A stretch of 64,000 bases of DNA from Gammaproteobacteria bacterium (GTDB taxonomy: Bacteria; Pseudomonadota; Gammaproteobacteria; UBA1113), in contig JAGVJQ010000032.1 in assembly GCA_020051015.1 (NCBI GenBank), forward strand, positions 7,199 to 71,198, in the 5' to 3' direction. The translations under genes were made by a program, and so were the position numbers. The notes under the pieces were generated by a model. It saw only the letters and a program-made list of their open reading frames with translations, searched no databases and was not told the origin of the DNA. Below are positions 18,755 to 56,730 of this stretch, in pieces (position 1 is the first letter of the stretch; every line of letters begins with the position of its first letter).

Positions 18755-19765
18755 ATGGTAGAGGTAAATACAACTGAACCAAAACTGACAGTGCTAGGGG
18801 CGGGTTCGTGGGGAACTGCCCTTGCAATCCATTTGGCTAGACATCATGCGAATGTGACATTATGGGGACGTGATAGTTTACAGATTCAGCAAATGAATGC
18901 CGCTCGATGTAATACTCGTTACTTACCCTCCATTCGATTACCAGAAAACTTGACAGTCACCGATGATTTAAATGAAGCAATGAAAAATTGTGGCTTCTTA
19001 TTGATTGTGGTACCCAGTCATGTTTTTGAGTCATGTTTAACTCAAATCAAACCTTATTATCGTCCAGGCTTAACCGTTGCCTGGGCAACTAAAGGTATCA
19101 AAGCTGACGGTGAGCTATTACATCAAGTTGTTGAGCGAATATTAGGGAAGGACACGCCAAAAGCGGTGATAGCGGGTCCATCGTTTGCCGCCGAAGTAGC
19201 CACAGAACTCCCAACCGCTATTACGGTTGCATCCGATCAAGAATCCAGCGCACGCGCAGTTGCCAATATGCTTAACAGCCCTCGTTTCCGAGTTTATACC
19301 AGCAACGATATGATTGGAGCGCAATTAGGTGGTGCCGTCAAAAATGTGTTAGCGATTGCAACAGGTAGTTCCGATGGTTTAGGTTTTGGAGCGAATGCTC
19401 GCAGCGCATTAATCACTCGCGGGTTGGCTGAATTAATGCGTTTAGGTTTAGCCTTAGGCGCGCAAGCTGAAACATTAATGGGTTTAGCGGGTTTAGGTGA
19501 TTTAGTCTTAACGTGTACCGATGATAAATCGCGGAATCGCCGTTTTGGTTTAGCACTTGGTCGTGGTAGCTCAGTACAAGATGCCATTGAAAGTATTGGT
19601 CAAGTAGTTGAGGGTGTTACCGCGGCTGGACATATCTATCATTTAGCTAAGAAACATAACGTTGAAATGCCCATTACTGAGCAAGTTTATCGAGTTTTAC
19701 AAGGTCAATATTCTGCAGCTGATGCAGTTAAGATTTTATTATCGCGCGCATCGGGTAATGAATAA
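18755..19765 (+). CDS. gpsA: NAD(P)H-dependent glycerol-3-phosphate dehydrogenase
   Basis: LGAGSWGTALA Rossmann motif; 336 aa; conserved GpsA C-terminus. Confidence 0.95.
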   Translation: MVEVNTTEPKLTVLGAGSWGTALAIHLARHHANVTLWGRDSLQIQQMNAARCNTRYLPSIRLPENLTVTDDLNEAMKNCGFLLIVVPSHVFESCLTQIKPYYRPGLTVAWATKGIKADGELLHQVVERILGKDTPKAVIAGPSFAAEVATELPTAITVASDQESSARAVANMLNSPRFRVYTSNDMIGAQLGGAVKNVLAIATGSSDGLGFGANARSALITRGLAELMRLGLALGAQAETLMGLAGLGDLVLTCTDDKSRNRRFGLALGRGSSVQDAIESIGQVVEGVTAAGHIYHLAKKHNVEMPITEQVYRVLQGQYSAADAVKILLSRASGNE

Positions 19766-19784
19766 GGGCGTATGCAATACGCCC
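19766..19784. terminator. perfect 8 bp stem / 3 nt loop palindrome gggcgtat-gca-atacgccc immediately after gpsA
   Basis: Seen directly. Related copies are at about 13122 (ggacgtatgtaatacgccc) and, degenerate, at about 22442. Confidence 0.55.
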
Positions 19785-19796
19785 TTCATTTACCTA

Positions 19797-19819
19797 GGAG
19801 CTGTTGACAATTCTACTTT
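19797..19819. repeat. MITE terminal-inverted-repeat fragment (left-end type)
   Basis: agctgttgacaattctact matches the left terminus of the MITE copies (ggggctgttgacaattctact). It is preceded by cctagg, as at the MITE flanks. Confidence 0.7.
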
Positions 19820-21233
19820 AACGCAAAGGTCTCATTGAAAGTTTATTGGCTGGCCCATTAACATGTCCGATATCGGATGCTGGAAATACTTGCGCATTGA
19901 CTCTTGTTAATGGCAAATCGTAATTAACACTACCCAGGAATTTACGCGTTAAAGCAGTAGGATCGACTGCAACGTAAGATTGTGCTGATGCACTACTTTG
20001 TTGCGCGATGGCCTTTAGCCCACTTGATGCTTGTCGATGTACTTCACCAAGAGCATAAGCAGAATTTTTTAGTTTATTATACACTTCATCAGCATTTCCA
20101 AATTGTGGATTTTGTTCCGCAAAGGTTTTTGTTAAATCTCGGCTAACTAACAATCCATGCGGTGTAGTAATCAATAACTGTGTTAATGCGCCATTGCCAT
20201 TTTGTCGACCATATTTATGTCCATATTGCTTTAACCAATTAAGGAAAAACTCACCAAATTCAGTTGCGCCCAGCGAACCGCTGATTTCAGATGAGCTAAT
20301 CTCTTTACCCGGAATAAACATGCCACTATTAGTAAAATGAGATTGAGGTACAGTGGCTTCTTGATTAAATGTGGTATTTTCTTGATTACTGTCTGCGTCA
20401 TCAGCTTGTTTAGCATTTTTCTTATCTTCACTAGATTCACCAATTTCATATTGTTGAATTAAATCACCAATTAAAAATCCAGCTTCTAAATTGGGTTGTT
20501 GTTCTAAATCAGCTTCGATAGGTAAAATACATTTAGCAAATAAACCTGCATGTTTATCATCATTTAATAAAATGGCTAACCATGCGTTAAAAATTTCAGC
20601 ATCCGTTGCAATCCAGCTCACACCGACTGGCGGTAAAGTCTCTAATGCTAAAACCAAGGTACTGCGGGCTGCTAATTCATCACGACGTGTCGTTTCAAAA
20701 CTATAACGATAAAATTCGCCCTGATCTCGCATATATCCTTTTACAGGATTCCATCGTTGTGTTGGATGACCATTCATTTCACACATCATCACCCAGTACG
20801 TAGCAACAACTTGACCAATACCATACATCAAGCCAGCAGTAAAAAGTGCGTAACTCCAAATGGCTTGCCGAATGGGCATTTGCTCAGGGGTCGCATGGCG
20901 GACAGGAAATTCACGGCGATACCAAGCTAAAGTTTGTAGCGCTCGCTTGATGCCAAGCTCTAATAAACCACCATGATAATTAAACGTGTCAACTTGGGTT
21001 GCAGGTAATCCTTGCACAAAATTGGCGTAATCATGAATAGCTTTCAAATATAAGTCATTGAAAACACTTTCTGGCACAAAAGCTAAATTTTTTAACTGCG
21101 ACAATGTTTGTTGGTAATTTTTGCCTTTAAGCAATTGTTCCGCTGATAATACTGGATAATGCGGTGGTAATTTCGACATGATAGGTGTTACTTTATCCCA
21201 AGCTGGAGATGAGGCTACTTTTGTTGTAAACAT
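19818..21233 (-). CDS. hypothetical protein with similarity to the N-terminal HD-like domain of MobH/TraI_2-type ICE relaxases, with catalytic residues substituted
   Basis: Segment LPATQVDTFNYHGGLLELGIKRALQTLAWYRR...ATPEQMPIRQAIWSYALFTAGLMYGIGQVV resembles the LPAS...HHxxxGGLLxHTLEV...LLHDIGK region of MobH relaxases, but the second His, the H-T and the HD are replaced. 471 aa, no transmembrane segment. Confidence 0.4.
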   Translation of the reverse strand: MFTTKVASSPAWDKVTPIMSKLPPHYPVLSAEQLLKGKNYQQTLSQLKNLAFVPESVFNDLYLKAIHDYANFVQGLPATQVDTFNYHGGLLELGIKRALQTLAWYRREFPVRHATPEQMPIRQAIWSYALFTAGLMYGIGQVVATYWVMMCEMNGHPTQRWNPVKGYMRDQGEFYRYSFETTRRDELAARSTLVLALETLPPVGVSWIATDAEIFNAWLAILLNDDKHAGLFAKCILPIEADLEQQPNLEAGFLIGDLIQQYEIGESSEDKKNAKQADDADSNQENTTFNQEATVPQSHFTNSGMFIPGKEISSSEISGSLGATEFGEFFLNWLKQYGHKYGRQNGNGALTQLLITTPHGLLVSRDLTKTFAEQNPQFGNADEVYNKLKNSAYALGEVHRQASSGLKAIAQQSSASAQSYVAVDPTALTRKFLGSVNYDLPLTRVNAQVFPASDIGHVNGPANKLSMRPLR

Positions 21234-21282
21234 AATAATCCTTTTCGTTTACATAGGCACGTCATCAGACGTGCCGTATAAT

Positions 21283-22059
21283 TTAAACAAACTTATCAAA
21301 TTGTTGCAGTTTTAAATGATTAACAACTTTTTTAATCGATGATATATATCGATTACCCAATTCAGAATAAGCCATTAATCCATTGACCAATTCAATACTG
21401 TTGATATTTTTCTTTTGCGAACGTTCGTTATAACGAATATTTCGCATTTGTTTATATGCCTTATTGCTATTCAAGTTGTGAATATAGGTATTAATTGCAT
21501 CATCAATATCATCAAACTTAGCCATTTCATAATAATTACCGCGTCGATTATGGCCTGTACTGACACCACAACCACGTGAAAAACACTCTTGGCCAAAATA
21601 ATTATTCGCATGACGGGCAATATGAGAGTTACCCCATCCTGATTCTTGGATTGCTTGTGCCAATACCAGTGAAACAGGAACAATATCTACACGCTTATCT
21701 AATTCTTGCCATGTGCCTTTACTATTAAAGTTTGGCGATGCAATTTTATATTCACTCGCTAAATTCATTAACCAATGTTTATCACCGGCAGATAAATCTT
21801 TACCACTTTGATATTGCGTTTGCAATGAAAGTAATTGTTTTCGGTCACTCAATATTTGTTGATTTGTTTGATAAGTACTATCTACTACTGATTCAACAAA
21901 TTTGGCATGCTGTCCAGAAAAATTACTTTTCACTTGCTGACTAACTTGGGCGTGGTTCCCAAACCAATTAAATGCAAATGCATTTGTCGAAAGTACCAAC
22001 AACGGTACTAAAATTAAACTAGCGAAAACTGATTTTGTCCGCCTTGGTTGTTTTTGCAT
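21283..22059 (-). CDS. Bax-like protein with mannosyl-glycoprotein endo-beta-N-acetylglucosaminidase (FlgJ-type) domain
   Basis: Signal peptide or TM. Motif LVLAQAIQESGWGNSHIARHANNYFG is typical of the glucosaminidase domain. Confidence 0.7.
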   Translation of the reverse strand: MQKQPRRTKSVFASLILVPLLVLSTNAFAFNWFGNHAQVSQQVKSNFSGQHAKFVESVVDSTYQTNQQILSDRKQLLSLQTQYQSGKDLSAGDKHWLMNLASEYKIASPNFNSKGTWQELDKRVDIVPVSLVLAQAIQESGWGNSHIARHANNYFGQECFSRGCGVSTGHNRRGNYYEMAKFDDIDDAINTYIHNLNSNKAYKQMRNIRYNERSQKKNINSIELVNGLMAYSELGNRYISSIKKVVNHLKLQQFDKFV

Positions 22060-22526
22060 ATCTTTTACCTCTTTCTTTTGGTCGAAGGTTTAATCTAAAT
22101 TTATTTTTAGATTAAGAGAATGCCCAACAACATCCTTGCTCATTGCACATTTAAGGCGACTACCTAAATACAACCGAATAAACATATTCACCGAATTGTG
22201 AATATATTGAACTTGGGTAGTCACTTTCGAGCCGTCAATTATATCAAAAAATGTTCTAAATGCAAAACAAAAAATTAAATGGGATATAATCAAGAGGTTA
22301 GATGTCTGAATAAAACAAGAAAATCTTAAGAAGCAATGAAGTATTTTTTAATGAGAATTAAATAACATATTGATTTATAACACATAAAATCATGCTATCT
22401 GCGAAGAAGTAAAATAAAGTGTTGTCCGATGTCGGATAAATGGGCATATGCAATACAAAGAATTTTCTTGACGGTGTAGGATGGGCTAAATATTGTTGCC
22501 CTCGAAGAGGTATCGCATAACAATAT

Positions 22527-22569
22527 GTGCCCACCATTGGTGATGAGTGATGGCATGATGGTGGGCACA
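22527..22569. other. 12 bp-stem hairpin (tgtgcccaccat ... atggtgggcaca) inside a 635 bp non-coding region
   Basis: Seen directly. It is followed by a T-containing stretch. It could be the terminator of the upstream lipoprotein gene or part of an sRNA. Confidence 0.4.
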
Positions 22570-22694
22570 CATCGCTTCATTATCGTGCTAATTAGTTGTT
22601 TTTGCACGTGACGCGATGTTTAGTCCACCCTACATAAAAAAAATTCTTTGGGAGATCTTCGCTCCATCCAGGCACATTTTGCCTTAAACTGTTA

Positions 22695-25051: not shown

Positions 25052-26455
25052 ATGACAAAAAAACGTGGGCAAGGTAAGCGGTTATTTGTTATTGATACCA
25101 ATGTTCTTATGCATGACCCTTCAGCCATCTACCGATTCGAAGAACATGATATTTACATTCCCATGGTAGTGTTAGAAGAATTAGATAACAATAAAAAAGG
25201 GTTATCTGAAGTTGCACGTAACGTGCGACAAGTGAGTCGTTATTTCGCTGATATTATTGCTAACGCTCAAGATAATCAAATCAAAGCGGGTCTTAGCTTA
25301 ACAAAGAATTCTTCGCAAACCAAGACACACGGTCGTTTATTTTTCCAAACACATGAGCTAACAGCTACCTTACCGCATAGTTTACCTGGCAATAAACCTG
25401 ACAATGGTATTTTAGAAACCGTCATTGCATTACAAGCAGAGCATGCAGATGTCACCATTATTCTCGTTTCTAAAGATATTAATTTACGTATTAAAGCCAC
25501 TTTATTAGGCATTCATGCTGAAGATTATTTTAATGATCAAGTCATTGATGATATCGATTTATTGTATAAAGGCGTACAACAATTAGATGAAAATTTCTGG
25601 GAAAAACATGGCAGTAAAATGCAATCTTGGAAAGACAAAGAAAAAACATATTATCGCTTAACCGGTGATGATATACATCAATGGTATCCCAATATGTTTT
25701 TATCCACTCCTGATGAAGAAGGTTTTTCTGCGGTAGTGAGAGAAATTCATGATAATGATGCATTGATTGAGTTAACCACTGATTATCGCCATCAGAATAA
25801 TGCTGTATGGGGAATTACTGCTCGTAACCGCGAACAAAATTTTGCACTGAATTTATTGATGGATCCTTCTATTGATTTTGTCTCATTACAAGGCATTGCA
25901 GGTACTGGCAAAACATTATTAACCCTCGCGGCTGGTTTAGCACAAACCATCGAGAAGAAACTTTATCGTGAAATTATTGTTACACGTGTAACGGTGCCAC
26001 TTGGTGAAGATATAGGTTTCTTACCTGGTACGGAAGAGGAAAAGATGACGCCGTGGATGGGCGCTTTAATGGATAATTTGGAAGTCTTACACTGTCATGA
26101 TGATACTGAAGATTGGGAGATAAGCGCTACCAATGATTTATTACGCAATCGTATTAAAATTCGTTCTATGAATTTTATGCGTGGTCGAACCTTCTTGAAT
26201 AAATATATCATTATTGATGAAGCACAAAATTTATCAGCTAAACAAATTAAGACGTTAATAACTCGTGCGGGACCCGGCACTAAAATTGTATGTTTAGGTG
26301 ATATTAAACAAATTGATACCCCTTATTTGACAGAAACCAACTCTGGTTTTACTTATGCCGTCGATCGGTTTCGACCATGGAGTCACAGCGGCCATGTCAC
26401 GTTAAATCGTGGTGAGCGCTCGCGTTTGGCAGATTTTGCGGCAGAACAATTATAA
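25052..26455 (+). CDS. PhoH-like ATPase with N-terminal PIN domain (YlaK/PhoH2 family)
   Basis: PIN acidic residues at the N-terminus (LFVIDTNVLMHDP, VVLEELD). Walker A GIAGTGKT; Walker B IIIDEAQN. Confidence 0.85.
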   Translation: MTKKRGQGKRLFVIDTNVLMHDPSAIYRFEEHDIYIPMVVLEELDNNKKGLSEVARNVRQVSRYFADIIANAQDNQIKAGLSLTKNSSQTKTHGRLFFQTHELTATLPHSLPGNKPDNGILETVIALQAEHADVTIILVSKDINLRIKATLLGIHAEDYFNDQVIDDIDLLYKGVQQLDENFWEKHGSKMQSWKDKEKTYYRLTGDDIHQWYPNMFLSTPDEEGFSAVVREIHDNDALIELTTDYRHQNNAVWGITARNREQNFALNLLMDPSIDFVSLQGIAGTGKTLLTLAAGLAQTIEKKLYREIIVTRVTVPLGEDIGFLPGTEEEKMTPWMGALMDNLEVLHCHDDTEDWEISATNDLLRNRIKIRSMNFMRGRTFLNKYIIIDEAQNLSAKQIKTLITRAGPGTKIVCLGDIKQIDTPYLTETNSGFTYAVDRFRPWSHSGHVTLNRGERSRLADFAAEQL

Positions 26456-26534: not shown

Positions 26535-27782
26535 ATGAAAGAAAAACTATTACAAACGATTAATCAATTAATTCCACAAATAGATAAAGTACTTAAAAAG
26601 AAAAAAATTCGTACTGCAGATACGGCTGAAGCACTGGATTTTATAGCTTTATTAAATAAAATCAGCATTATTAAAAAAGAAAAAATCCTTCGCAGTGATG
26701 ATGCCTTTTTAATCTTTTTATCCCTTGCGGAAATTTTATTCATTAGCTTAAATTATCTAATAAAACATGAATTAATAGATGAAACAATTAAAAGAACTCT
26801 CTACGAGATTTACGCTAAACTAAACTGGTGTTCAAACCAAATATTCGGACAAAAAGATACTGGTTTTTATTTTACTACGTCGACAAATTTTACTAATGAT
26901 GCAATAACTAACGAAACAGTCATTCCTACAATAAAAAATATGGCTTATCTCAACCTAACACATAACTATCTATTAGAAACACAGCAGTTATATACAGAAA
27001 AAAATAGGACAAAAAAAATATCTGTAGCTGAAAAAATACTCTTCTACCGCTTTACATTCTTAATATTATCAACATATAACAATAATAATATAATTAGTGG
27101 TTACCGAATTATTAAGGATCATGTTAATGTATTACCCGATTCTTACGAAGTAAATTATCAAACTTGTATTGATTCCATTAAATCGTTATATGAAAAAAAT
27201 TTATTAGCCCTTAAAGAAACACCGTACCAAGGCTTTTTTGTTGCTGCATTGCACTCACTCACAACACAGCTTGATTCAATTTCTAACCTAGAACAATTTA
27301 TCTCACTCATTCCACGCTTTATATCACAAGCGCTAGCAATCATTGCAGCTAGTCCATATAAAATAAAATTTGAATTATGCAATTTGGTTGATCTATTTAT
27401 GCTAGATACAATAGGAATTATATTTAATCTCAGTGAACATCCAATACTAAAGACAGTAAAAGATAATGTTTCTTCACTATATAGCAATATTGCGAATGCT
27501 GGTATTCCAATTTTAGCATGGCAACGACATTGCACGAACATTAAACTAGCTTGGGAAAAATTAGTTATCACCATTAATCAGCCTAATGTTTCAAGTGATT
27601 TATTTTCATCTTCTCTTGCTGCAATGATACCGAAAACTATGCAACTACAATATGCACAGAATGAGCAATTACGGCGATCATCGTCACCTATTCATAACAA
27701 GTCGAACTATAAAGATGGAACCATAGAAATTCACATTAAAGAAGAGTTTGCTGTTCCCATGCTCTTGAGTCTAACCTGCTAA
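26535..27782 (+). CDS. hypothetical protein (415 aa), very AT-rich, no recognisable motif; candidate effector
   Basis: Long ORF in a conspicuously low-GC segment, rich in I/N/K/L. No signal peptide and no TM evident. Confidence 0.5.
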   Translation: MKEKLLQTINQLIPQIDKVLKKKKIRTADTAEALDFIALLNKISIIKKEKILRSDDAFLIFLSLAEILFISLNYLIKHELIDETIKRTLYEIYAKLNWCSNQIFGQKDTGFYFTTSTNFTNDAITNETVIPTIKNMAYLNLTHNYLLETQQLYTEKNRTKKISVAEKILFYRFTFLILSTYNNNNIISGYRIIKDHVNVLPDSYEVNYQTCIDSIKSLYEKNLLALKETPYQGFFVAALHSLTTQLDSISNLEQFISLIPRFISQALAIIAASPYKIKFELCNLVDLFMLDTIGIIFNLSEHPILKTVKDNVSSLYSNIANAGIPILAWQRHCTNIKLAWEKLVITINQPNVSSDLFSSSLAAMIPKTMQLQYAQNEQLRRSSSPIHNKSNYKDGTIEIHIKEEFAVPMLLSLTC

Positions 27783-34719: not shown

Positions 34720-35862
34720 CTACGCCAATCCAGCATCTCTGTCAGCATTAATTGAACCAGCCGCTAAAATTTTATAATCACGCTCGCTGATAATACCATC
34801 ATCAAATCGACGTTTTGCTTCGACGATCATAGGTTGTCCATATTCTTTCAACAAGCGGCGTGTTTCTGCTGTAATATTTTCGACATTGACACTTAATAAC
34901 TTATCACGAATAGCTTCATCAAAGATTAAAAATTCGCGCAATGCAGTGCGTTTACCATCAACAGTAGGTACTAGTTTTTGCCAAATAATTAACCGTACGG
35001 TTTCAATAATATCAATAGTACGGCCATGTCGTTCATCAGCTGGAAATGTATTGACTAAACGACGCATAACTTCGGAGACACCATTACTATGTAATGTCGT
35101 GTAAACCGGATGCCCAGTAATAGCTGCCTCCATTGCCGCTGCAATTGTTTCCGTGTCACGTGCTTCACCCACCAAAATCAAACGCGGTTTACGTCGTAAC
35201 GCATTGCGCACTCCGGCCGCAAAACTAGGCAAATGACGAGGAATTTCGGATTGACTAATGACAGTATTAGGTCTTTCAACGCTATCATATACAAATTCAA
35301 TAGGTGATTCATAAGTAAGTATTTTACGATTGCTTTCTGTACTTTCTGCTAAATGTCGAATAATCGCTGCTAATAAAGTACTTTTACCTGATCCAGTTGC
35401 GCCCGTAACATATACCACACCTTCTTGTGGCGCAATCGCTGGTAATAAAGTTGGTTCCAACTGCATGCTTTCTAATGTTGGAGGATCACTTGGAATAGTA
35501 CGTAAGGTCATTTGAATGGCATCATGCCCTTCTACTTGACAGCCTGTACCATTGACACGATAACGATAGCGCTCAGATCGACTTGGACGCACTTCATAGT
35601 GCGTATCAACATCTTTACCGCTTAAGATTTGCGTCGTACCATTTGGGCCATAAATAAAATTCAGCATGTCGCCAATTTCGTTATTGGTCATTCGTCTGCG
35701 CGTAATATGATATAAACGACCATACACTTCAGCAATAACATGCTCATTGGTTTGTAGCGTTATATCAGATGCTTGAATTTGATGGCAAAAAACCAACATT
35801 CGATCCATTTCATCTTTGGTAAAACGTAATGGTTCATCTGGCAAACTATAAGACTCATTCAT
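34720..35862 (-). CDS. dotB: Dot/Icm type IVB secretion ATPase DotB (PilT/VirB11 superfamily)
   Basis: Walker A GATGSGKST plus Asp and His boxes of PilT-like ATPases; 380 aa. Immediately downstream of dotA. Confidence 0.8.
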   Translation of the reverse strand: MNESYSLPDEPLRFTKDEMDRMLVFCHQIQASDITLQTNEHVIAEVYGRLYHITRRRMTNNEIGDMLNFIYGPNGTTQILSGKDVDTHYEVRPSRSERYRYRVNGTGCQVEGHDAIQMTLRTIPSDPPTLESMQLEPTLLPAIAPQEGVVYVTGATGSGKSTLLAAIIRHLAESTESNRKILTYESPIEFVYDSVERPNTVISQSEIPRHLPSFAAGVRNALRRKPRLILVGEARDTETIAAAMEAAITGHPVYTTLHSNGVSEVMRRLVNTFPADERHGRTIDIIETVRLIIWQKLVPTVDGKRTALREFLIFDEAIRDKLLSVNVENITAETRRLLKEYGQPMIVEAKRRFDDGIISERDYKILAAGSINADRDAGLA

Positions 35863-35877
35863 GCTACACTAATCCCA

Positions 35878-38337
35878 TTATGAAACCTTATTATTCTCAC
35901 CACCACCTTGTTTGCCCTGCGAAGCATTGAAGGCGGCCTCCATTGCTTTGGCTTGCAATGCACGGTTACGCTCATCTTTAACAGCCTCAGCACCCGCTTT
36001 GGCACCACCTTCTGCTTGACCAGAAACTTTTTGGCCGCCTTGCGATACTTCTTGATCGGCTTCTTGACCGGTTTGTTCTGGTGTTTCACCTATCCAACGT
36101 AATACTTGATCGGGAATTTTGTGGATTAACTTGAAACATTGTTGCATTAAATACGTTGCCAACGAGAAATAAGTGATCAGTGTAAAGAACATCGTAAACG
36201 GTCCAAAAACACTCATACTTAAAAATGAAATTGCAACTTTGAAACCACCATTTAAAATCTGAAACGCGATATATACTAATAAACTTGCAGCAATAAAACC
36301 AATAATCATCAACATGGGCCGCAAAAATACACTTAGTAATAACATAACACCCTTTTCAGATCGTCCCCAAATGTCATGCTGACCTTCTGGATGCACAATC
36401 CCCAGTGCTAAAATAGGTCCCGCCACCATCGCTTCAATTACCAAAATTAACCACGCTAGCGAACCTGCTGTAAACAAAATATAAGGGATTAATGGCATAT
36501 AATATCCCACCATGGCACCAAACCCCATGGTCATTCCTAACAATCCCATTGCCGGCAAAACGAATAAATCCAAGGCAATTTCAATTGAACTTGAAATATC
36601 ACTGCCAACAAACGGAATCCAACTAGTACCTGCATTTATGCCGACGACTAAACCACCAAATAACATAAATGTACTTGCCACAGTTACAACGATGGTTTGT
36701 CCCATGGTTGCTAATCCCACAACCGGATTACTGGATGTGCTTGTTATGACTTGCAGAAACCAATTAAAGATATCTTCAAACATACTATTAATCGCACCAA
36801 TCAACGGTGAGAGAATACCAGTACCGTTATTAGAGGTATAAGTAACATTAAAAGTTTGAGCCGGGCCATTTACATTTAAATCCTTTGGAATACACGGAAC
36901 AAGAATGGCACCCGCATTATTTGCAGTCGTTGCTGAAATGCTATTTGATCCAAGATTAGGACCACTACAAATTTGAGTAATTTGCTGAGTATCACTATAT
37001 TGCTGCGATGATGCGTAATTGTTAATGGCACCTAAATTCGGCGTATTTACTTTAGGGGCATTCACATTAGGCGTGGTTTCAGCAGTAATTTTACTTAATA
37101 AAAGGTAGTAAGTTCCTGCATACAACCAACCATATTGTCGTGCTTGATTTAAATCGCCCATAATTGCCACAGATGCATTGGATGCAAGTGACTGTCTTAA
37201 TTGTTGTGTGTCACCCAGCCCTCCCTGCGTCCCTTTAGTCAATAACCCACCGCCGCCCATTTGTCCTTTGACAATAGGTGCATTCGCGCCAGTAGATTGC
37301 GCTGAATAGTTTTGTGCCGCATTAAGAATTTGTCGTTGTACCTCTTGAATACAGTTTTTATCGGTATTTAAGTTGCAATAATTTGATGTGTTAACATAAT
37401 AATTAGCAGCTTGAGCTAATGTTTGCGTGATGCTAATCAATACTTGGTTCGATTGCATGGCTTTTCGATAAGCATATACGTCATCCAAGGATCCGTAATT
37501 ACCATAATTAGTAAAAGCATTGGTAATTTGTGACACACCCTCCGCTGCTGGCACATAATTCGCAACATTACCCATGGCAGTATTATTAGTATTAAAACTA
37601 CCTTGTTGTCCTACTCCAGAAGGTTTTTGTGGCGCAGTTAACTCAACCGTTCCACAAATAGCTGGTTGATTAGGATTGGTAATACCAAATTTTATTGCCG
37701 TACCATTTGATGCATCAGATGATGGGTAAAAAATACTGGATGTAGATGGTTGAGTTTGTACACCTTGCTCAAGTTGATTTTGCGCTAAAGCTAATGAATA
37801 GGTACAAGAGGCATTTTTAAAGATTTGGATAATTGCAGGCATAACTTGTTGCGAAACATAAGGCACTTGTGGTGTCGCATTCCCTTCCATCACATTTTTC
37901 AGATATTGATTCCATAGATAATCCGCTGCACCAACACCTTGCACTACAATCCACATAATAATAACTTGAATAATCGCGTAACCACCGGCTTTTACTGGTA
38001 ATAACATGGCAAAACCCGCGGCCATACGCAATGGGATCCACACTGAGCTCCATTTTTTCCCTAATAATTCACCATCATGTGCCGTATTAACAGTAGAAAC
38101 GATAATGGCATAAAGAATAATAAAACCACCGACTACTAAGGCAACGTTATTAAAGAGCAAAATTACAGTCTCTAGTGGACCATTAGTCGCACCACCGATC
38201 ACATTACCAACTTGACCGAATATTTCGCTTAAAAACAACATGGATTGATCCATGTTAGGCACCGCAAAAATACTACCTGCCGCTAAACTTAGTGGAGATA
38301 CTAATAATAAAATTAAGCCGAGGAAAATACGCATCAC
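35878..38337 (-). CDS. dotA: Dot/Icm type IVB secretion protein DotA
   Basis: 819 aa with signal peptide. N-terminal block IIVSTVNTAHDGELLGKKWSSVWIPLRMAAGFAMLLPVKAGGYAIIQVIIMWIVVQGVGAAD matches the conserved DotA N-terminal region. Large Q/N/T-rich periplasmic domain and a C-terminal polytopic TM bundle. Confidence 0.8.
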   Translation of the reverse strand: MMRIFLGLILLLVSPLSLAAGSIFAVPNMDQSMLFLSEIFGQVGNVIGGATNGPLETVILLFNNVALVVGGFIILYAIIVSTVNTAHDGELLGKKWSSVWIPLRMAAGFAMLLPVKAGGYAIIQVIIMWIVVQGVGAADYLWNQYLKNVMEGNATPQVPYVSQQVMPAIIQIFKNASCTYSLALAQNQLEQGVQTQPSTSSIFYPSSDASNGTAIKFGITNPNQPAICGTVELTAPQKPSGVGQQGSFNTNNTAMGNVANYVPAAEGVSQITNAFTNYGNYGSLDDVYAYRKAMQSNQVLISITQTLAQAANYYVNTSNYCNLNTDKNCIQEVQRQILNAAQNYSAQSTGANAPIVKGQMGGGGLLTKGTQGGLGDTQQLRQSLASNASVAIMGDLNQARQYGWLYAGTYYLLLSKITAETTPNVNAPKVNTPNLGAINNYASSQQYSDTQQITQICSGPNLGSNSISATTANNAGAILVPCIPKDLNVNGPAQTFNVTYTSNNGTGILSPLIGAINSMFEDIFNWFLQVITSTSSNPVVGLATMGQTIVVTVASTFMLFGGLVVGINAGTSWIPFVGSDISSSIEIALDLFVLPAMGLLGMTMGFGAMVGYYMPLIPYILFTAGSLAWLILVIEAMVAGPILALGIVHPEGQHDIWGRSEKGVMLLLSVFLRPMLMIIGFIAASLLVYIAFQILNGGFKVAISFLSMSVFGPFTMFFTLITYFSLATYLMQQCFKLIHKIPDQVLRWIGETPEQTGQEADQEVSQGGQKVSGQAEGGAKAGAEAVKDERNRALQAKAMEAAFNASQGKQGGGENNKVS

Positions 38338-38843
38338 TTGTCTCCACTCACTTTTTCATTAAGCCATTCTTTAATTGTGCAACCTAATTTATGATTTTTT
38401 ATCTGAAAATACCAAAAATGGTAACGACATGCTGTTACCAAACATAATAATGTCACGACAAACGCCAATGCAGCGCTAGTAAATGAGGCTTGCCATAATA
38501 AATAAAGGGTATACAAAAGCGTTAATGCTCCAAATGAGCCAATAATAATAACCATGCGCAGAAAATTAGATTGACGCTCTTGAATATCTGCTTCAGACAA
38601 ATTTAAGCGTTTCATTGCCTCTTCAAAACTTTCAGTATGTTCCGGCTTTTGAATAATAAAGAGAGAACGTGCATTATCCTTCACATAACTAGAATTAGAC
38701 TTGACTGCATCCCAGCTTACCCAGGATTTAACGCCGTTTCCAGCACGTTTCAATAAACCTTTTTTCGGTTTTTCAACCTTGCTCACCGGTGGTTGTTTCT
38801 GTTCTTCAACATTCGTTTCTGGTACTTTTGGTGTATCCGCCAT
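38334..38843 (-). CDS. icmV: Dot/Icm protein IcmV. The start is taken at MADTPK; the track ORF begins at 38900. There is a 4 nt ATGA overlap with dotA.
   Basis: Two TM helices and C-terminus RYHFWYFQIKNHKLGCTIKEW as in IcmV. Translationally coupled to dotA. Confidence 0.65.
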   Translation of the reverse strand: MADTPKVPETNVEEQKQPPVSKVEKPKKGLLKRAGNGVKSWVSWDAVKSNSSYVKDNARSLFIIQKPEHTESFEEAMKRLNLSEADIQERQSNFLRMVIIIGSFGALTLLYTLYLLWQASFTSAALAFVVTLLCLVTACRYHFWYFQIKNHKLGCTIKEWLNEKVSGDK

Positions 38844-39030
38844 GCGATTGACCTCAAAATAAAATTTACCCTTTAATTTCAATATAACACTGGAAGTCAA
38901 CCCCCGCCAATACTGTTTAAAAAAAATACATCATTTTAATGAAAATGCTTGCTTGGGCTTGCAACTAACTCTATAGTGTGCATATATGCCCATTATATTT
39001 GAAGATGCGAGTATCATTAAATATGACCAA

Positions 39031-39152: not shown

Positions 39153-39602
39153 ATGGTTGACCTTAGTCATGAAGGCGCACATAGGTTTTGGCGAGAATAT
39201 CCCGATCCAATGATTTATCGTGTGGTTGCTTTTATGGAAGGTGTGGAACAATGGACTTTAGACGGCGATCCAGCCTTTGAAGCCGCAGTTGCCAAATTGG
39301 GCGAAGAATTAGATAAAGTAGGCAATTATGAACTTGGAATGAAAGATGAGTTTATTAAATTTGCCACGTATATTAAAGCAGCGCGTAATTTACGCCTTTT
39401 ACAAGCATTAGACACCGCTCATCCTGGTGCCGCATCCAAATTACTTATTCATGCTGAAGAATCCAGCAAAAGCAGTGATGATATTCCTGGCCTTTTTTTA
39501 AGGCGTAATATAGTCTTTGAAAGATTACGTTTATTAGGCCGCATTTTTTCTATAGAACGTTTAGATTTAATTGTAAAAGCGCTTGGAGGTGAAGATGTTT
39601 AA
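39153..39602 (+). CDS. icmW: Dot/Icm type IV adaptor protein IcmW
   Basis: 149 aa. DLSHEGAHRFWREYPDPMIYRVVAFMEGVEQWTLDGDP and RLLQALDTAHPGAASKLLIHAEE match the IcmW family. Confidence 0.8.
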   Translation: MVDLSHEGAHRFWREYPDPMIYRVVAFMEGVEQWTLDGDPAFEAAVAKLGEELDKVGNYELGMKDEFIKFATYIKAARNLRLLQALDTAHPGAASKLLIHAEESSKSSDDIPGLFLRRNIVFERLRLLGRIFSIERLDLIVKALGGEDV

Positions 39603-40068
39603 AGTAGCTAAATTATCCTCGTTATTCGTTGTTACTGGGCTGATTAGTATGAGTTCAGCTTGGGCAGCAGACGCGAATGACACCCTTTACCAACAAGTTG
39701 GTAATCAAGATATCAGTGTTTTAAATAGTATGAATGTCCAAGCATCGCAAAACCAAGCCCAACAAATGGGTACGCAAATGCAACAAGATATTAATCAGCA
39801 ACGTGCTCAAAATCAACAATATTTACAACAAGTTGGACAACAAATCATTCAAGCTGGAACACGTAATGGCGCCACTCAAACCACTATAACACCACCAGCG
39901 CCAACCAATACTCCCACGACGAATACACCGACCACAGGGCCATCAAACAATGCCAGCCCTGCCACTTCTACTAATAAATCCACATCTACAAACCCACCAG
40001 CTCCCACTACGCCAAATGGTTTAAGTAATGGTGCTAATGGTGGCAGCGGTTGGAGTTATGGTTTTTAA
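39583..40068 (+). CDS. secreted Q/N- and T/P-rich protein (161 aa)
   Basis: Signal peptide (LSSLFVVTGLISMSSAWAAD), a poly-Q/N central part, a TNTPTTNTPTTGPS repeat, and a G-rich C-terminus. It overlaps icmW by 20 nt and is in the same frame as the next ORF but separated from it by TAA. Confidence 0.5.
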   Translation: MEVKMFKVAKLSSLFVVTGLISMSSAWAADANDTLYQQVGNQDISVLNSMNVQASQNQAQQMGTQMQQDINQQRAQNQQYLQQVGQQIIQAGTRNGATQTTITPPAPTNTPTTNTPTTGPSNNASPATSTNKSTSTNPPAPTTPNGLSNGANGGSGWSYGF

Positions 40069-40104
40069 ATCTATTTTCAATTAATTTTTCCACTGGAGGT
40101 TTCT

Positions 40105-41103
40105 GTGAAACATAAAGCACAAAAATTGGTAGCGTTAACTACTGTAACAACAGCGATGACGGTAGGATTATTAGGTAGCAGTACAGCGCTAGCTGATGAT
40201 AGCTCTGACAGCGTTCATCAAATTACAAGTGGTGTTGCTAGTGCATTTGGCTTTGGCACTATCAATGTCTTAAGTGGCTTATATACTTATTTACAAGATT
40301 GTGAAAATGCTTATTCAGTTTGGGTACTTAAAACCATGCAAGGTAATGCTACTCAATACGCCATTACTGACTCACAAAAATTACAGGCACAAACCGCAAA
40401 AGATACTACGGCCTTTATCTTTAACGCGGTCACCGCACCTAATGCTCAGCCACAAGCAACAACGTCTACGGGCTTACCAACTAATTATTCTGCTGGTGTT
40501 TATGCAGCTATGGTACCGGTTAACAGAGACACGATGGGATTAGCTAAATCTACTTACTTATCAAGTGAAGCGCTTTTTGCCTCAACCAAATACAATGGTG
40601 ATACACAGCGTCAACAAGCTGGCACATTTATTCAATTTTTAGGTGATGCGGGAGCCAGAGTAACGCCGCTAAATGCGCAAACGTTACAAAAAGCAGATGG
40701 TGCAACAGCCGCATCTTATTTAAACTCACTAGCAACTTATTATGCCGGTCAATCAGTGGGCTTAAATGCACTTTACAATTTGTATAATGAACGTATCCCA
40801 GTTCAACAATTAAATGGTGAAAGTGTCTTATCAAATGATCAAAAGCAAGTTCTGCGCCGCATGCAACCTGCTTGGACCGAAAGTGTCAGTAAAATGACAA
40901 TTGTTGATGTTGCACGTGAAACGCTTTATACACAAGCCGAAATGAATTATCAACTCTTTCAGCTACGCATGCAGTTAGAGCAATTAAATGCTACATTGGC
41001 AGCTATGCAAATGGAGCAACAACAGATTTCTGCTAAACCATTATTGATGGGTAAAGAACAACAAGTTATCCAATCAGCTAATGCGGCAAGTGCTCCTAGT
41101 TAA
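40105..41103 (+). CDS. icmX: periplasmic protein, probable IcmX homologue
   Basis: GTG start with GGAGG RBS. Signal peptide MKHKAQKLVALTTVTTAMTVGLLGSSTALA. 332 aa with a C-terminal coiled coil. Sits in the icmX position after icmW. Confidence 0.45.
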   Translation: MKHKAQKLVALTTVTTAMTVGLLGSSTALADDSSDSVHQITSGVASAFGFGTINVLSGLYTYLQDCENAYSVWVLKTMQGNATQYAITDSQKLQAQTAKDTTAFIFNAVTAPNAQPQATTSTGLPTNYSAGVYAAMVPVNRDTMGLAKSTYLSSEALFASTKYNGDTQRQQAGTFIQFLGDAGARVTPLNAQTLQKADGATAASYLNSLATYYAGQSVGLNALYNLYNERIPVQQLNGESVLSNDQKQVLRRMQPAWTESVSKMTIVDVARETLYTQAEMNYQLFQLRMQLEQLNATLAAMQMEQQQISAKPLLMGKEQQVIQSANAASAPS

Positions 41104-41260: not shown

Positions 41261-42877
41261 CTATGTCGAATAATCGCTAAATATACAATTCCCACCGACC
41301 ATTTTTGCTTTTAACAACGCTTCACTCGCAGTATGAATAAAACTTTCAACTGATAAACAAGGTGGAAATGATGCTATTCCAGCACTAAAAGTCGCTAAAA
41401 ATGATTCCCCTAAATTATTAAATACAACTTGACTAAAATACTCTTTAAATTCATTAATAAGAGTTAAAGCGGATTGTACCGTTGTATTAGGTAAGACCAT
41501 TAAAAAGCTACCACTACTATAACGACCAATTAAATCCGATTTTCGCAATCGTTCACATAGCATCAAAGATAAGCTCTTAATCACCCGATCGCCAACGATA
41601 TAACCATAATCATCATTAATTTTCTGACAATTATCTATATCTATTATTGCAACAGTCAATGTTTGATGAGCACGATTTGCTAATTTTAATTCTGACTCGA
41701 GTTCTTGAATAATTGAATTATGATTAAGAACACCTGTTAAATGATCTTTCATAATTAAAGTCTGCAATGCATGATAACGTTTGATTCTATTTTTAATTGT
41801 TGAAATTAAAATACCAGGATCCATTGATTTTTTGATAACATCATCAGCACCCATGCTCATAGCATATAATTGTTTTTCAGGGTTTTCTTCCATCGATAAG
41901 AAAATTATTGGAATGTGTACATAAGCATCACGTTGACGAATTATTTTAACTAATTCTAGCCCACTACAAATTGGCATATAAATATCAGTTAAAATCAAAT
42001 CCGGGTGAAATTCATGTAACGCTTTATCGATAAAGACTGGTTGATTAATCACCATTGTTGCGATACCAGCATACTGTAAAATCGTTTCATAAACTTGTGC
42101 TACATCAGGTTCATCCTCAATGAGTAATACTTTATAAGGATCTTTATCTTCATTATGTAATAAAGCTAATTTAGTTATGATTTCTTCTTCTTTAAATGGA
42201 TATGGGAAATAACCATCACCGCCAGCGCGAACAGCCTGCAGGTGTAATAAAAAGTTATCACTTTCACCCAGAAAAAATATTGGAATTGCTAACGTTAATT
42301 TTGGACTTTTAATCTTTTTAAGAATTTCTTCTAATTCTTCATTGAGACATTTAATATCAACAATAATTAATTCCGGTAAACTTTCATCCAATATTTTTTT
42401 GAAGGATTCGACATCGTGCAATATTTTAGTAATATAGCCAAATTGTTCAAAATGTAATTTTTGTAAGGAATCTTTATCGTCGGTAGGAGCAAGGTAATAA
42501 ATCATATGATTTTGGATTAACAACTCATTCTTATTCTGTGTATAAAGCGTTTTATTTTTAATGTCTGCTGCATCCAATAGCATTTGACAAAATTGAGATA
42601 ATCGCGCAATTTGATCTTCGCTTGGATTAACCTTCAATAAGTTTTTCAAAAAAAACTCGAAAGTTTCAGCTGACTTTTCTAATTTCGTAAAGCCATACAT
42701 TGCTGCGGAACCATGTAAAGCATGCACTTTACAATGTAGGTCAACAAGTACATTGTTATCCCACTTTGCATTGAGTTGCTCGCAAATGGTTACAATTTCA
42801 TTGATTTTATGCGGTATACTTTTTTTATATTTATCAATAAGTAATGAGATTTTTTCATGAAAATCCATCTTTTCCAA
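41261..42877 (-). CDS. HPt - pseudo-receiver - receiver - degenerate GGDEF multidomain response regulator
   Basis: N-terminal HPt (HALHGSAAMYGF). A second receiver has canonical Asp (DLILTDIYMP), T/S and K. The C-terminal GGDEF fold has an SGSF motif in place of GG(D/E)EF (RYSSGSFLMVLP). Confidence 0.75.
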   Translation of the reverse strand: MEKMDFHEKISLLIDKYKKSIPHKINEIVTICEQLNAKWDNNVLVDLHCKVHALHGSAAMYGFTKLEKSAETFEFFLKNLLKVNPSEDQIARLSQFCQMLLDAADIKNKTLYTQNKNELLIQNHMIYYLAPTDDKDSLQKLHFEQFGYITKILHDVESFKKILDESLPELIIVDIKCLNEELEEILKKIKSPKLTLAIPIFFLGESDNFLLHLQAVRAGGDGYFPYPFKEEEIITKLALLHNEDKDPYKVLLIEDEPDVAQVYETILQYAGIATMVINQPVFIDKALHEFHPDLILTDIYMPICSGLELVKIIRQRDAYVHIPIIFLSMEENPEKQLYAMSMGADDVIKKSMDPGILISTIKNRIKRYHALQTLIMKDHLTGVLNHNSIIQELESELKLANRAHQTLTVAIIDIDNCQKINDDYGYIVGDRVIKSLSLMLCERLRKSDLIGRYSSGSFLMVLPNTTVQSALTLINEFKEYFSQVVFNNLGESFLATFSAGIASFPPCLSVESFIHTASEALLKAKMVGGNCIFSDYST

Positions 42878-42919: not shown

Positions 42920-44365
42920 TTATCCTGCGAACGCAGCCAGGCAAACTTGAAATAATCCTGTTGGAATAATACCTAAAGCTAGTACCATTAAGCAGTTAAC
43001 GCTAATGCCCAATTGCTTACCAAAACCATCAATAACAACCATAGTATGGTCTTCTGGCGCATCAAAATACATAACTTTTACCACACGTAGATAATAATAT
43101 GCGCCGATGATAGCAAAAATTAAAGCTAAAGCAGCTAACCAAACTAAATGTACGTGAACTAATGACACTAATACTGAAATTTTAGCGAAAAATCCTGCAC
43201 TTGGCGGAATACCGGCCATAGAAAACATCACTAATAGCATTAAGAATGCTAACCAGGGATTACGTGCATTTAAACCGCGCAAGTCATCAATGGATTGGAC
43301 CTCAAAGCCAGTACGACTTAACAACATTAAGACACCAAAAGCGCCTAAAGACATAATGGCATAAACAAGGGTATAAAACATGGCAGCACCAAAGCCAGAT
43401 GCAATGCCAGAAACTAAACCTAATAACATATAACCAATATGAGCGATTGAAGAATAAGCAAGCATACGACGAATATTAGATTGCACAATCGCAACAATAT
43501 TACCTATCGCCATCGATAAAATAGAAATTACCATCAAGATATGCTGCCATTGACTCGTTAATGCCGGCAAGGCATCGACTAATAAACGAATAGCTAAAGC
43601 AAATGCCGCAATTTTAGTTGCACTTGCAATAATTAACGTTACAGGTAACGGTGAACCTTCATAAATATCCGGAATCCACATATGGAAAGGTACCGCACCT
43701 AGTTTAAACGCCGCTGCCGCAATGACAAAAACTAACCCTAATACTAATACTGTTAATTGAGTATTATTGGAAGCAGCAATTGCTTGCATGACATCAGGAA
43801 TAGTTAAACTACCCGTTGCACCATATAACATGGACATACCAAATAACAAAAAGGCAGATGCTGTTGAGCCTAGCACAAAATATTTTAATGCGGCTTCAGC
43901 ACATTCTGCTGAATTTCGTTGCATAGCAATCATTGCATACAATGGCAATGATAATAATTCCAACCCAAGAAATAAGGTAATAAAACTATAAGCTGACACT
44001 AAGACCATCATTCCTAACACCACAAATAAGGTTAGCAAATAATATTGTCCTTCAGCTAAACCTTTTTGTCGGATAAAATTATGGGAATACAATAATGCCA
44101 AGAAAGTTGTAGCGTAAATAAAGACTTTTAACACACAGCCCATATGATCAATGATAAAACTATTATTAAAAACAATTTCGGTTTGATAATGAAATAAATT
44201 AACTGATAAAAAGGTACAAATTACCAATGTTAATTGGGTCAACATAAAAGTTAAATTACGTAACCGCTCACCCCAAAATAGATCGACTAGCAAAATGATT
44301 AAAATCATTGCTGTGATAAAAATTTCCGGCATGGCCGGGATAAGCTGTGTAACAGTAAAACTCAT
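42920..44365 (-). CDS. nuoN: NADH-quinone oxidoreductase subunit N
   Basis: 481 aa polytopic protein; last gene of the nuo operon. Confidence 0.9.
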   Translation of the reverse strand: MSFTVTQLIPAMPEIFITAMILIILLVDLFWGERLRNLTFMLTQLTLVICTFLSVNLFHYQTEIVFNNSFIIDHMGCVLKVFIYATTFLALLYSHNFIRQKGLAEGQYYLLTLFVVLGMMVLVSAYSFITLFLGLELLSLPLYAMIAMQRNSAECAEAALKYFVLGSTASAFLLFGMSMLYGATGSLTIPDVMQAIAASNNTQLTVLVLGLVFVIAAAAFKLGAVPFHMWIPDIYEGSPLPVTLIIASATKIAAFALAIRLLVDALPALTSQWQHILMVISILSMAIGNIVAIVQSNIRRMLAYSSIAHIGYMLLGLVSGIASGFGAAMFYTLVYAIMSLGAFGVLMLLSRTGFEVQSIDDLRGLNARNPWLAFLMLLVMFSMAGIPPSAGFFAKISVLVSLVHVHLVWLAALALIFAIIGAYYYLRVVKVMYFDAPEDHTMVVIDGFGKQLGISVNCLMVLALGIIPTGLFQVCLAAFAG

Positions 44366-44374
44366 GTTCTATTC

Positions 44375-45895
44375 CTAAACTAATTTGGTAGTATTACTAA
44401 TTGTTAATAAATGCCCAACTGTGGCATGCATCATATTTAATAATGGTTGTGGATAAACACCTAGTGCGATTACAGCAATAGCCAAAATTACCATTACTGC
44501 CGTCTCAGTACCGCTAATATCTTCAAATGTAGCGACATAATCATGGGTAATTTCACCAAAGAAAACTCGTTTATACATCCATAGTGTGTAAGCCGCTGCT
44601 AATACTAATGTCGAAGCTGCCATTAAAGCAATCCACACACTTGCACCGAATGCACTCAAAATAATCATGAATTCGCCTACGAAACCTGACGTTCCTGGCA
44701 AGCCAACATTAGCCATACAAAACAACATAAAGAATGCAGCGAACCATGGCATTGAATTTACAATACCACCAAAATCATCAATCATACGACTATGATAACG
44801 CTCATACAAAATGCCTACGCCAAAGAACATTGCTCCGGTACTAAATGCATGCGAAATCATTTGCACCATAGAGCCTTCCAGACTCATGTATGCATCCCGA
44901 ATATCACCCGTTCTTGCTAAAATTAAATAAATCATGAAACATGCTAATGTCGCAAAACCCATATGTGCAATAGAAGAATAAGCAATTAATCGCTTCATAT
45001 CTTTTTGGCCAATAGCAACCAATGCTATATAAATGATGGCAAATAATGATAATAAAATCACTAACCAATCCAATGCTCGCGAAGCATCTGGCGTAATAGG
45101 CAAGCTAAACCGTAAGAAGCCATACACACCCATTTTCAACATTAATGCAGCTAACACCACTGAACCACCAGCAGGCGCTTCTGTATGTGCATCAGGTAAC
45201 CAGGTATGAAAAGGAAACATAGGAACTTTAACAGCAAAGGCAAGTAAAAATGCTAAGAAAATCCATATTTGTTCGGTCATACTAAGTTTTAATGTGTAAT
45301 AACCGAGAATAGAAAAACTGCCGGAATAATAACGCATATATAATAATGCAACTAACATCAAGGCTGAGCCGAAAAACGTATAGAGGAAGAACTTGATTGA
45401 CGCGTAACTACGATTTTCGCCACCCCACATACCGATACATAGGTACATAGGAATTAGCATACCTTCCCAAAATACATAAAAAAGCACCGCATCTAACGCA
45501 GCAAATACACCGACCATCATGCCTTGCATAATTAAAAAGGCTGCCATATATTGTGCAACGCGATGTTTAATGGGGCGCCAGGAAGCAATAACAACCACTA
45601 ATGTTGTTAAGGTTGTTAACATAATTAAAGGCAATGAAATGCCATCCACACCTAAATTATAGTAAATGCCGTAACGCGCAATCCACGGATAATATTCAGC
45701 AAATTGCATAACAGAAGTTGATGCATCATATTCCAAATAAAGTGGAACACATAAAGCCAAGCAGATAATTGCTGTAAATAATGCGATAAGTCGCGCGGCA
45801 TTGGCACGACGATCATCACCAGTCATCAGTGCTGCAGCACCGCCCAACATTGGCAACCAAATTTCTAAACTGAGTAACGGTAATTGTTGAAACAA
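44375..45895 (-). CDS. nuoM: NADH-quinone oxidoreductase subunit M
   Basis: 506 aa antiporter-like subunit. Confidence 0.9.
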   Translation of the reverse strand: MFQQLPLLSLEIWLPMLGGAAALMTGDDRRANAARLIALFTAIICLALCVPLYLEYDASTSVMQFAEYYPWIARYGIYYNLGVDGISLPLIMLTTLTTLVVVIASWRPIKHRVAQYMAAFLIMQGMMVGVFAALDAVLFYVFWEGMLIPMYLCIGMWGGENRSYASIKFFLYTFFGSALMLVALLYMRYYSGSFSILGYYTLKLSMTEQIWIFLAFLLAFAVKVPMFPFHTWLPDAHTEAPAGGSVVLAALMLKMGVYGFLRFSLPITPDASRALDWLVILLSLFAIIYIALVAIGQKDMKRLIAYSSIAHMGFATLACFMIYLILARTGDIRDAYMSLEGSMVQMISHAFSTGAMFFGVGILYERYHSRMIDDFGGIVNSMPWFAAFFMLFCMANVGLPGTSGFVGEFMIILSAFGASVWIALMAASTLVLAAAYTLWMYKRVFFGEITHDYVATFEDISGTETAVMVILAIAVIALGVYPQPLLNMMHATVGHLLTISNTTKLV

Positions 45896-45914
45896 TTTTC
45901 ACTCCGAAAAATAA

Positions 45915-47903: not shown

Positions 47904-47906
47904 AGC

Positions 47907-48209
47907 TTAACCCTTTAATGAATTCATCTCTTGGACACTGATTGTGTGTTTATTGCGGAAAAACACCATCAAAATGGCCAAGCCAATTGCAGCCTCTGCT
48001 GCTGCCACCGTCAAGATAAAGAAGACAAATATTTGTCCCTGTAAATTACCTAAAAAGTGTGAAAATGCTATAAAATTGGTATTAACAGCTAATAGCATTA
48101 ATTCAATACACATCAATAATAAAATTAAGTTTTTGCGGTTGATCACCATACCAGCAACCGCGATACCAAATAAAATCGAACTTACGATTAAATATGCAGA
48201 TAAAGGCAT
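47907..48209 (-). CDS. nuoK: NADH-quinone oxidoreductase subunit K
   Basis: 100 aa, three TM helices. Confidence 0.9.
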
Positions 48210-48217
48210 GATATTCC

Positions 48218-56728: not shown

Positions 56729-56730
56729 GT

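Follow-up and report, generated by a model that had tools for sequence, protein, structure and literature searches.

A motif-less descendant of MOBH relaxases encoded between bax and gpsA in a Dot/Icm-bearing gammaproteobacterium

The 64,000-nucleotide stretch of DNA analysed here (the window) comes from a gammaproteobacterial assembly (GCA_020051015.1, contig JAGVJQ010000032.1, positions 7,199 to 71,198 of the forward strand). On its minus strand, at 19818..21233, it carries the coding sequence of a 471-amino-acid (aa) motif-less TraI_2/TraI_2_C protein, labelled X throughout, which is a descendant of a MOBH (TraI_2) relaxase that keeps the scaffold, the TraI_2_C domain, an acidic linker and a basic C-terminal tip. 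The open reading frame (ORF) is intact in the ORF listing and is matched at 100% by a database protein (P0001); its assignment is further backed by the Pfam TraI_2 match, and its start codon by the conserved N-termini of homologues, which begin with MF. Direct reading of the sequence places a Shine-Dalgarno-like AAAAGGA (21239..21245, minus strand) 7 nt 5' of the ATG. Upstream of X and co-oriented with it lies a bax-like glucosaminidase gene (21283..22059, minus strand; NCBIfam ‘protein bax’, Pfam Glucosaminidase), and the 49-nt spacer between the two holds a perfect, GC-rich 8-bp hairpin (21256..21275, no strand assigned), which is not a canonical terminator because no T-run follows it on the minus strand. 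Downstream, a perfect 10-bp hairpin (19764..19786, no strand assigned) sits between the stop codons of X and the convergent gpsA and is likely to be a bidirectional terminator common to both genes. An Rfam scan near X found no RNA element.

The relationship to TraI_2/MobH proteins, which an earlier note on this DNA had proposed from the letters alone, was borne out by a HMMER-type check. Pfam TraI_2 (PF07514) matches residues 30-236 of X at E=1.9e-16 (60.4 bits against a gathering score of 23.9), and the NCBIfam MobH model (NF041494) matches at E=7.7e-37. The second match, at 127 bits, is below the cut-off of 200 and spans only model positions 2-213 of 340, whereas motif-bearing controls score 327-371 bits over positions 1-340. 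Since the match of X ends at about position 213, the last ~110 positions of the model, corresponding to the last third of the relaxase domain, are absent. When five motif-less proteins were scanned against NF041494 they scored 82-180 bits, all under the cut-off, and in four of the five, X among them, the match stops at ~213-236; in the motif-less P0101, a weak match extends to position 290. The sole related solved structure is PDB 3KQ5, an uncharacterised Coxiella burnetii protein (phmmer, E=2.3e-17), which was also the only match when a predicted model of X was submitted to Foldseek (E=5.2e-8). A family profile aligns with both domains of 3KQ5 (E=7.7e-39) and covers its residues 244-295 in the C-domain. 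Comparison of the C-terminal region of X with canonical TraI_2_C regions using hhalign gave a probability of 96.6% (E 5.8e-10), and the canonical C-terminal profile matches both 3KQ5 and 2IPQ. The Pfam scan of X itself gave no direct TraI_2_C match and no HD-domain match, and a direct sequence match of the family C-domain to TraI_2_C or 2IPQ in Pfam and the PDB was obtained for only 1 of 15 members. A match of the C-terminal domain to deoxyguanosine kinase proved to be spurious, profile-profile comparison being required instead. An ‘(F/Y)P’ motif is specific to the subclade and is not the counterpart of the canonical PNP(H/Y)L; the actual counterpart lies further upstream and reads GSVNYDLPL in X.

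The layout of the protein can be divided into four parts. The relaxase-derived TraI_2 domain, with a putative HD fold, occupies residues ~26-245 (20499..21158, minus strand; placed using the Pfam and NCBIfam MobH matches and the motif table described below) and is helical in the predicted model, with a predicted local distance difference test score (pLDDT) of about 70-90. It is followed by an acidic disordered linker of 75 residues (~246-320; 20274..20498, minus strand), standing where the last third of the relaxase domain would be and recognised by its pLDDT (<50 over residues 260-320 of the predicted model), its charge and its ratio of non-synonymous to synonymous substitution rates (dN/dS). 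The linker of X has a net charge of -9, and that of 15 out of 15 clade members is negative (-3 to -11); its sequence is poorly conserved (dN/dS 0.31) despite this constant negative charge. The equivalent segment in the canonical P0016 has a net charge of +1. The TraI_2_C-like alpha/beta domain (residues ~321-430; 19944..20273, minus strand) was placed using hhalign, the family profile against 3KQ5 and predicted secondary structure. Finally, residues 431-471 (19821..19943, minus strand) form a polar, Pro/Ser/Thr-rich tail, distinguished by its composition, isoelectric point (pI 10.3) and dN/dS, which ends in the basic tip …KLSMRPLR and has no Glu block. Lys or Arg would be expected in the last five residues of 42% of proteins but is present there in 75% of the motif-less and 79% of the canonical ones. 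The earlier note had pointed to the lack of a helicase part; this is true of X but is not diagnostic, since MOBH relaxases have no helicase domain and are instead built from TraI_2, a disordered middle and TraI_2_C (PMC6736028), the last of which X retains.

The TraI protein of the gonococcus is the only MOBH relaxase with biochemistry, and its essential positions have been defined as S103, E104, H106-108, H117, H161, D162, K165, Y212, H215 and D267, with D162 and D267 required for Mn2+ binding (PMC6736028). These positions were tabulated in an alignment of 177 homologues drawn from the window, two database searches and 17 genomic loci. Whilst 16 homologues keep 10-12 of the 12 catalytic and metal positions and one keeps 8, the other 160 keep 0-5; X keeps none, and nor does the 3KQ5 fragment. 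The stretch LPATQVDTFNYHGGLLELG ... LMYGIGQ of X lines up in every column with LPASEAHHHAGLGGLLDHG ... LLHDIGK, the canonical sequence of motif-bearing MobH relaxases. At the alternative 3H motif (S-E-x-H-H-H) X has T79-Q80-V-D82-T83-F84; at the HD ligands it has L93 for H117, Y137-G138 for H161-D162, Q141 for K165 and E240 for D267, so that the equivalents of the Mn2+-binding pair D162 and D267 are G and E; and at the cleavage residues it has D185 for Y212 and A188 for H215. The substitutions of HD by YG and of H by L (LLDH to LLEL) had been read correctly in the earlier note, but its HH-to-YH register was four residues off, because the HHH aligns with D82-T83-F84 and not with Y86-H87; the conclusion is unchanged, as none of the 12 positions is kept. 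From these replacements we infer that X would be unable to nick DNA.

The loss of the canonical residues raises the question of whether X is still an enzyme, a nuclease, relaxase or other hydrolase, with a re-invented active site. The N-terminal domain is indeed very strongly constrained, some clade-specific polar residues are highly conserved (D185, present in 94% at the old Y212 position, together with R97 and C151), and motif mutants of gonococcal TraI kept their function in vivo (PMC6736028). Against this, the 12 former active-site positions have a mean entropy of 1.72 compared with 1.77 for the domain (p=0.42), the columns of the 3H loop drift freely within the motif-less clade, F, L, Y, G and A occupy the positions of the HD site and pocket, X is without the last third of the relaxase domain, and no partner genes of the type found at an origin of transfer (oriT) lie nearby. 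Conservation at the 12 positions does not exceed that of the domain as a whole, which argues against a conversion of the former active site into a new, conserved pocket, an idea that was therefore rejected; we consider an enzymatic X very unlikely. At 32 of the 39 most conserved N-domain positions of the X subgroup the consensus residue is the same as in canonical relaxases, the equivalents of gonococcal Y93 and Y201 being included in these 32.

X belongs to a sizeable family. An exhaustive profile search over 1.84 billion cluster representatives returned 1,516 matches at E<=1e-3 and 286 at E<=1e-30, and among the best 150 matches nearly all are 400-540 aa long and motif-less; an alignment-based homologue search gave the same proteins again. 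In a neighbour-joining (NJ) tree over 299 columns, which is rough and carries no support values, 157 motif-less (degenerate) proteins fall in one cluster apart from 17 canonical ones. Within the cluster three subgroups can be seen: that of X with 38 representatives, that of Cbu0560/3KQ5 with 13, and a large one of ~90 that includes the Legionella type. Identity between subgroups (26-28%) is no higher than identity to canonical relaxases, and p-distances have reached saturation (~26-29%) in both comparisons; the claim of a single origin of the motif-less proteins therefore rests on the rough NJ topology only, and is plausible. A few basal motif-less sequences (P0088, P0104 and P0137) keep the HHH whilst having lost the HD, and are also without HD..K, Y212/H215 and D267; P0109 keeps 8 of the 12 positions. 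All four stand at the base of the motif-less cluster and may be transitional. A poorly resolved MOBH3 clade lacking both motifs, which includes 3KQ5 and was ‘suggested to have an alternative function’, has been described previously (PMC6736028). The category to which X belongs is thus already in the literature, and what is new is a divergent, unusually degenerate member with a new subgroup and genomic context.

The neighbours of X in the window are housekeeping genes, as the earlier note had said, and when all ORFs of at least 150 aa in the window were scanned, no gene for an integrative and conjugative element (ICE), an integrase or a coupling protein was found, which answers its suggestion that such neighbours be sought. 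All motif-less homologues examined likewise lie in housekeeping contexts. Motif-bearing controls were found in other company: one (L006) sits with PFGI-1-type ICE proteins and a tyrosine recombinase, and another (L016) has TraD immediately downstream. Homologous loci were found using a profile-driven contig scan, a single-protein contig scan having given none. Homologues of X at 77%, 74%, 59% and ~52% identity share its neighbourhood: bax lies upstream, and gpsA-secB-grxC-rhodanese-gpmI-envC-prc is present downstream on contigs that extend far enough. The bax gene adjoins X in 7 of 7 loci at identities of at least 50%, and even a homologue at 38% identity (L002) still adjoins gpsA-secB-grxC. 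A constant partner gene was sought across the motif-less subgroups and none was found, bax being constant only within the sub-lineage of at least 50% identity. By subgroup, the contexts are bax-X|gpsA, mlaA-trmL-X, plsC-X, bamD-X, ksgA-X-apaH-litOPAI (Legionella) and leuS|X (Coxiella lineage). The neighbours of motif-less TraI_2 genes are often envelope-related (21283..22059 in the window; L001-L005, L012 and L018-L024 elsewhere), which could be chance, no statistic being attached; they comprise the bax glucosaminidase, mlaA, bamD (with a 4-nt overlap), lptD, plsC, gpsA, a dapA-lipoprotein pair and the litOPAI efflux system.

The earlier note had described X as an exapted or decaying relaxase remnant, and it is the first of these alternatives that the selection data sustain. 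Values of dN/dS for X are 0.09-0.15, compared with 0.035-0.08 for dapA, gpsA, gpmI, secB and bax, all of them rough because dS is near saturation. The motif-less N-domain is the most constrained part of X (dN 0.067, against 0.086 for gpsA; dN/dS about 0.02), and the tail is fast-evolving (dN/dS 0.42). X has lost its catalytic motifs along with part of the relaxase domain and stands alone, without further ICE genes around it, which could be read as the trace of an integrated conjugative element in decay, kept by chance. However, across more than 150 cluster representatives the ORF is intact and its length and architecture stay constant, synteny extends down to 38% identity, dN/dS is about 0.1, and the gene has a proper ribosome-binding site and terminator; a copy that really is decaying, found in a tick endosymbiont and described below, looks different. 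A decaying remnant is therefore refuted by the selection and synteny data, and its probability is close to nil. The observations favour an exapted X that is chromosomal, vertically inherited and under purifying selection.

Two relatives of X bear on what such a protein might do. In-frame deletion of lpg2927 in Legionella pneumophila has been shown to reduce replication in macrophages, a defect that was complemented in trans and that was accompanied by normal growth in broth; the authors found no connection between this phenotype and the adjacent Lit transporter (PMC11559062). A Legionella-type homologue in the ksgA-X-apaH-litOPAI context (L012) is motif-less but for H117, K165 and D267 (3 of 12 positions), and some relatives keep the HD..K motif. 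In CLEOmar, a Coxiella-like tick endosymbiont (GCA_907164965.1), the orthologue of Cbu0560/3KQ5 (L024, 8001..9133; 93-95% identical) has become a pseudogene: an in-frame stop (VVNQKIF to VVN*KTF) interrupts it, and the reading frame shifts between the N and C domains. Its neighbours leuS-lptE-holA-nadD are intact. The Dot/Icm system of CLEOmar has been inactivated, and the pseudogene fits a role tied to an infective lifestyle.

Taken together, we favour, with moderate confidence, the interpretation that X is a vertically inherited, domesticated MOBH relaxase that serves as a non-catalytic binding protein. It would act inside the bacterium and without catalysis; the conserved non-catalytic surfaces that it has in common with real relaxases, plus TraI_2_C, would bind a partner, either nucleic acid or protein. 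If Lpg2927 and CLEOmar are a guide, its function would matter for growth inside host cells and not for basic viability. Several points weigh against this interpretation. Gonococcal TraI with mutated 3H or HD motifs still supported DNA secretion in vivo (PMC6736028), so that loss of the motifs is in itself no proof of inactivity, and the catalytic deadness of every member of the family is something that we infer from sequence. The pI of the domains is uninformative as a hint of DNA binding: the N-domain of X is not basic (pI ~6), and that of canonical relaxases is acidic too. In the N-domain, identity between X and the Lpg2927-type and Cbu0560 proteins is only ~27%, and the context of X is bax-X|gpsA as opposed to ksgA-X-apaH in Legionella and leuS|X in Coxiella, so that positional orthology does not hold; with this low identity and different context, orthology, and hence transfer of the phenotype to X, is not established. 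The CLEOmar observation is weak because that genome is generally rich in pseudogenes.

The window also carries genes of a Dot/Icm type IVB secretion system, icmV (188 aa), dotA (819 aa) and dotB (380 aa), at 34720..38900 on the minus strand, with DotB scoring 614 bits against a cut-off of 463. The presence of icmV-dotA-dotB identifies the host as a Dot/Icm-bearing member of the Legionellales. Divergent ORFs of 161 and 332 aa (39583..41103, plus strand) have no family match and occupy the positions expected for icmW and icmX. On the contig of one 52%-identical X homologue (L020), a 62-aa gene at 275..463 matches Pfam PF28076 (CBU_0585_lpg0581), a family named after Coxiella and Legionella genes, which supports a Legionellales origin of that contig.

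Given such a host, X might instead be linked to Dot/Icm itself, either translocated into the host cell or serving the DotL coupling complex as an adaptor or docking factor, with TraI_2_C and the basic C-terminal tip as the recognition features that it would have kept for this purpose. The ancestral clients of type IV coupling proteins are relaxases, and in the Bep effectors of Bartonella a relaxase-derived BID domain and basic tail have been reused as a VirB/D4 translocation signal, which may serve as a precedent by analogy. Every identified carrier of X is a member of the Legionellales, in keeping with icmV-dotA-dotB in the window, but the scans behind this restriction were pattern-limited. 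Loss of Lpg2927 specifically affects intracellular growth, and the Coxiella-type copy is a pseudogene where Dot/Icm has been inactivated; nevertheless, in the literature searched neither Lpg2927 nor Cbu0560 is reported as an effector. Retention of TraI_2_C and the basic tip equals that in real relaxases, but the rapidly changing tail has none of the Glu-rich block typical of Dot/Icm signals (a mean of 0.41 Glu at positions -17 to -10; none in X). Moreover, MOBH relaxases normally pair with TraD-type coupling proteins of mating pair formation (MPF) G/F systems and not with type IVB systems, and X never adjoins dot/icm genes: in the window, 13.5 kb containing housekeeping genes separates the two, and all other loci examined are without dot/icm genes. 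On balance a link between X and Dot/Icm seems rather unlikely. A bolder version is speculative and distinctly doubtful: the Legionellales would have captured an ICE MOBH relaxase once, early in their evolution, and the protein, stripped of catalysis, would have been kept order-wide as a client or adaptor of the Dot/Icm coupling complex, or as a translocated protein, on which intracellular growth depends. If true, X would be a core virulence factor derived from a relaxase, comparable in this to the translocation signals of the Bartonella Beps.

Further features of the window were noted alongside X. The non-coding gap upstream of bax (22060..22694) is unusually long at 635 nt and contains a 15-nt inverted repeat (22523-22537 and 22558-22572, 93% complementary); in L001 a 419-aa ORF lies within the corresponding gap, on the other strand, and in L018 the gap is only ~300 nt. 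A fusion of PIN and PhoH domains of the PhoH2 type (25052..26455) is conserved beside ahpC-gcvR and is also found in L021. Beside the dot/icm cluster lies a response regulator with a GGDEF diguanylate cyclase domain (41261..42877). The window also holds a complete-looking nuo (NADH:quinone oxidoreductase) operon (42920..57246, minus strand), which accounts for a strong AT and GC skew at 44-50 kb. Five ORFs of 163-569 aa have no Pfam match (486..2195, 2413..2904, 5163..6542, 26535..27782 and 58024..59475); four of the five are also without an NCBIfam match, the ORF at 58024..59475 having been scanned against Pfam only. In a Dot/Icm-bearing host these five are candidate lineage-specific effectors.

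The motif-less TraI_2 family is strongly constrained, numbers 286 matches at the stricter threshold, and has a crystal structure and one clean infection phenotype. Knowing the role of a catalytically stripped relaxase in bacteria whose lifestyle depends on a type IV secretion system would help to explain how components of conjugation come to be reused in host-interaction machinery. Recognising the family also has a practical side. The NCBIfam model TIGR03760 (‘ICE relaxase, PFGI-1 class’; cut-off 161 bits) scores 182 bits against L012 (Legionella nagasakiensis, 5929..7263) and 185 bits against P0088, both above the cut-off, and 160.5 bits against P0047, just below it. With scores near or above the cut-off, annotation pipelines will label some non-ICE proteins as ICE relaxases, and mislabelling via models such as this one can inflate mobile-element counts in Legionellales genomes.

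The closest known counterparts of X are Cbu0560 (3KQ5) and Lpg2927. All share the same arrangement of TraI_2, linker and TraI_2_C in ~390-470 aa, all have lost the alternative 3H and HD motifs, and all are chromosomal and lie outside an ICE; in the rough NJ tree they cluster with X and apart from motif-bearing relaxases. They differ in that N-domain identity is only ~27-28%, X falls in the separate subgroup of 38, and X is more degenerate than the Legionella type (0 against 3 of 12 positions). The functional MOBH relaxases, such as TraI of the gonococcal genetic island and TraI of ICEs of the PFGI-1/ICEclc class, have homologous TraI_2 and TraI_2_C domains, a disordered middle and a basic tip, and share with X the FVQxLP(A) block, W-x-P, and the Y175 and W207/W218 positions. 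Unlike them, X has all 12 residues replaced, lacks the last ~110 positions (127 against 327-371 bits) and is without a TraD, MPF, integrase or oriT context. The fold of 3KQ5 resembles the di-metal HD proteins 3CCG, 2O08 and 2OGI (PMC6736028). In comparison with HD-domain phosphohydrolases, X is homologous to 3KQ5 but the H...HD...H...D ligands are all missing, and it is at most an HD-fold pseudoenzyme. The Bartonella Beps, finally, offer a precedent in which a host-interaction type IV system has exapted pieces of a conjugative relaxase; they too keep a C-terminal domain and a basic tail. Translocation of X is hypothetical, and whereas the Beps, which derive from TraA of the MOBQ/MOBP type and use VirB/D4, keep the signal module only, X keeps the whole scaffold.

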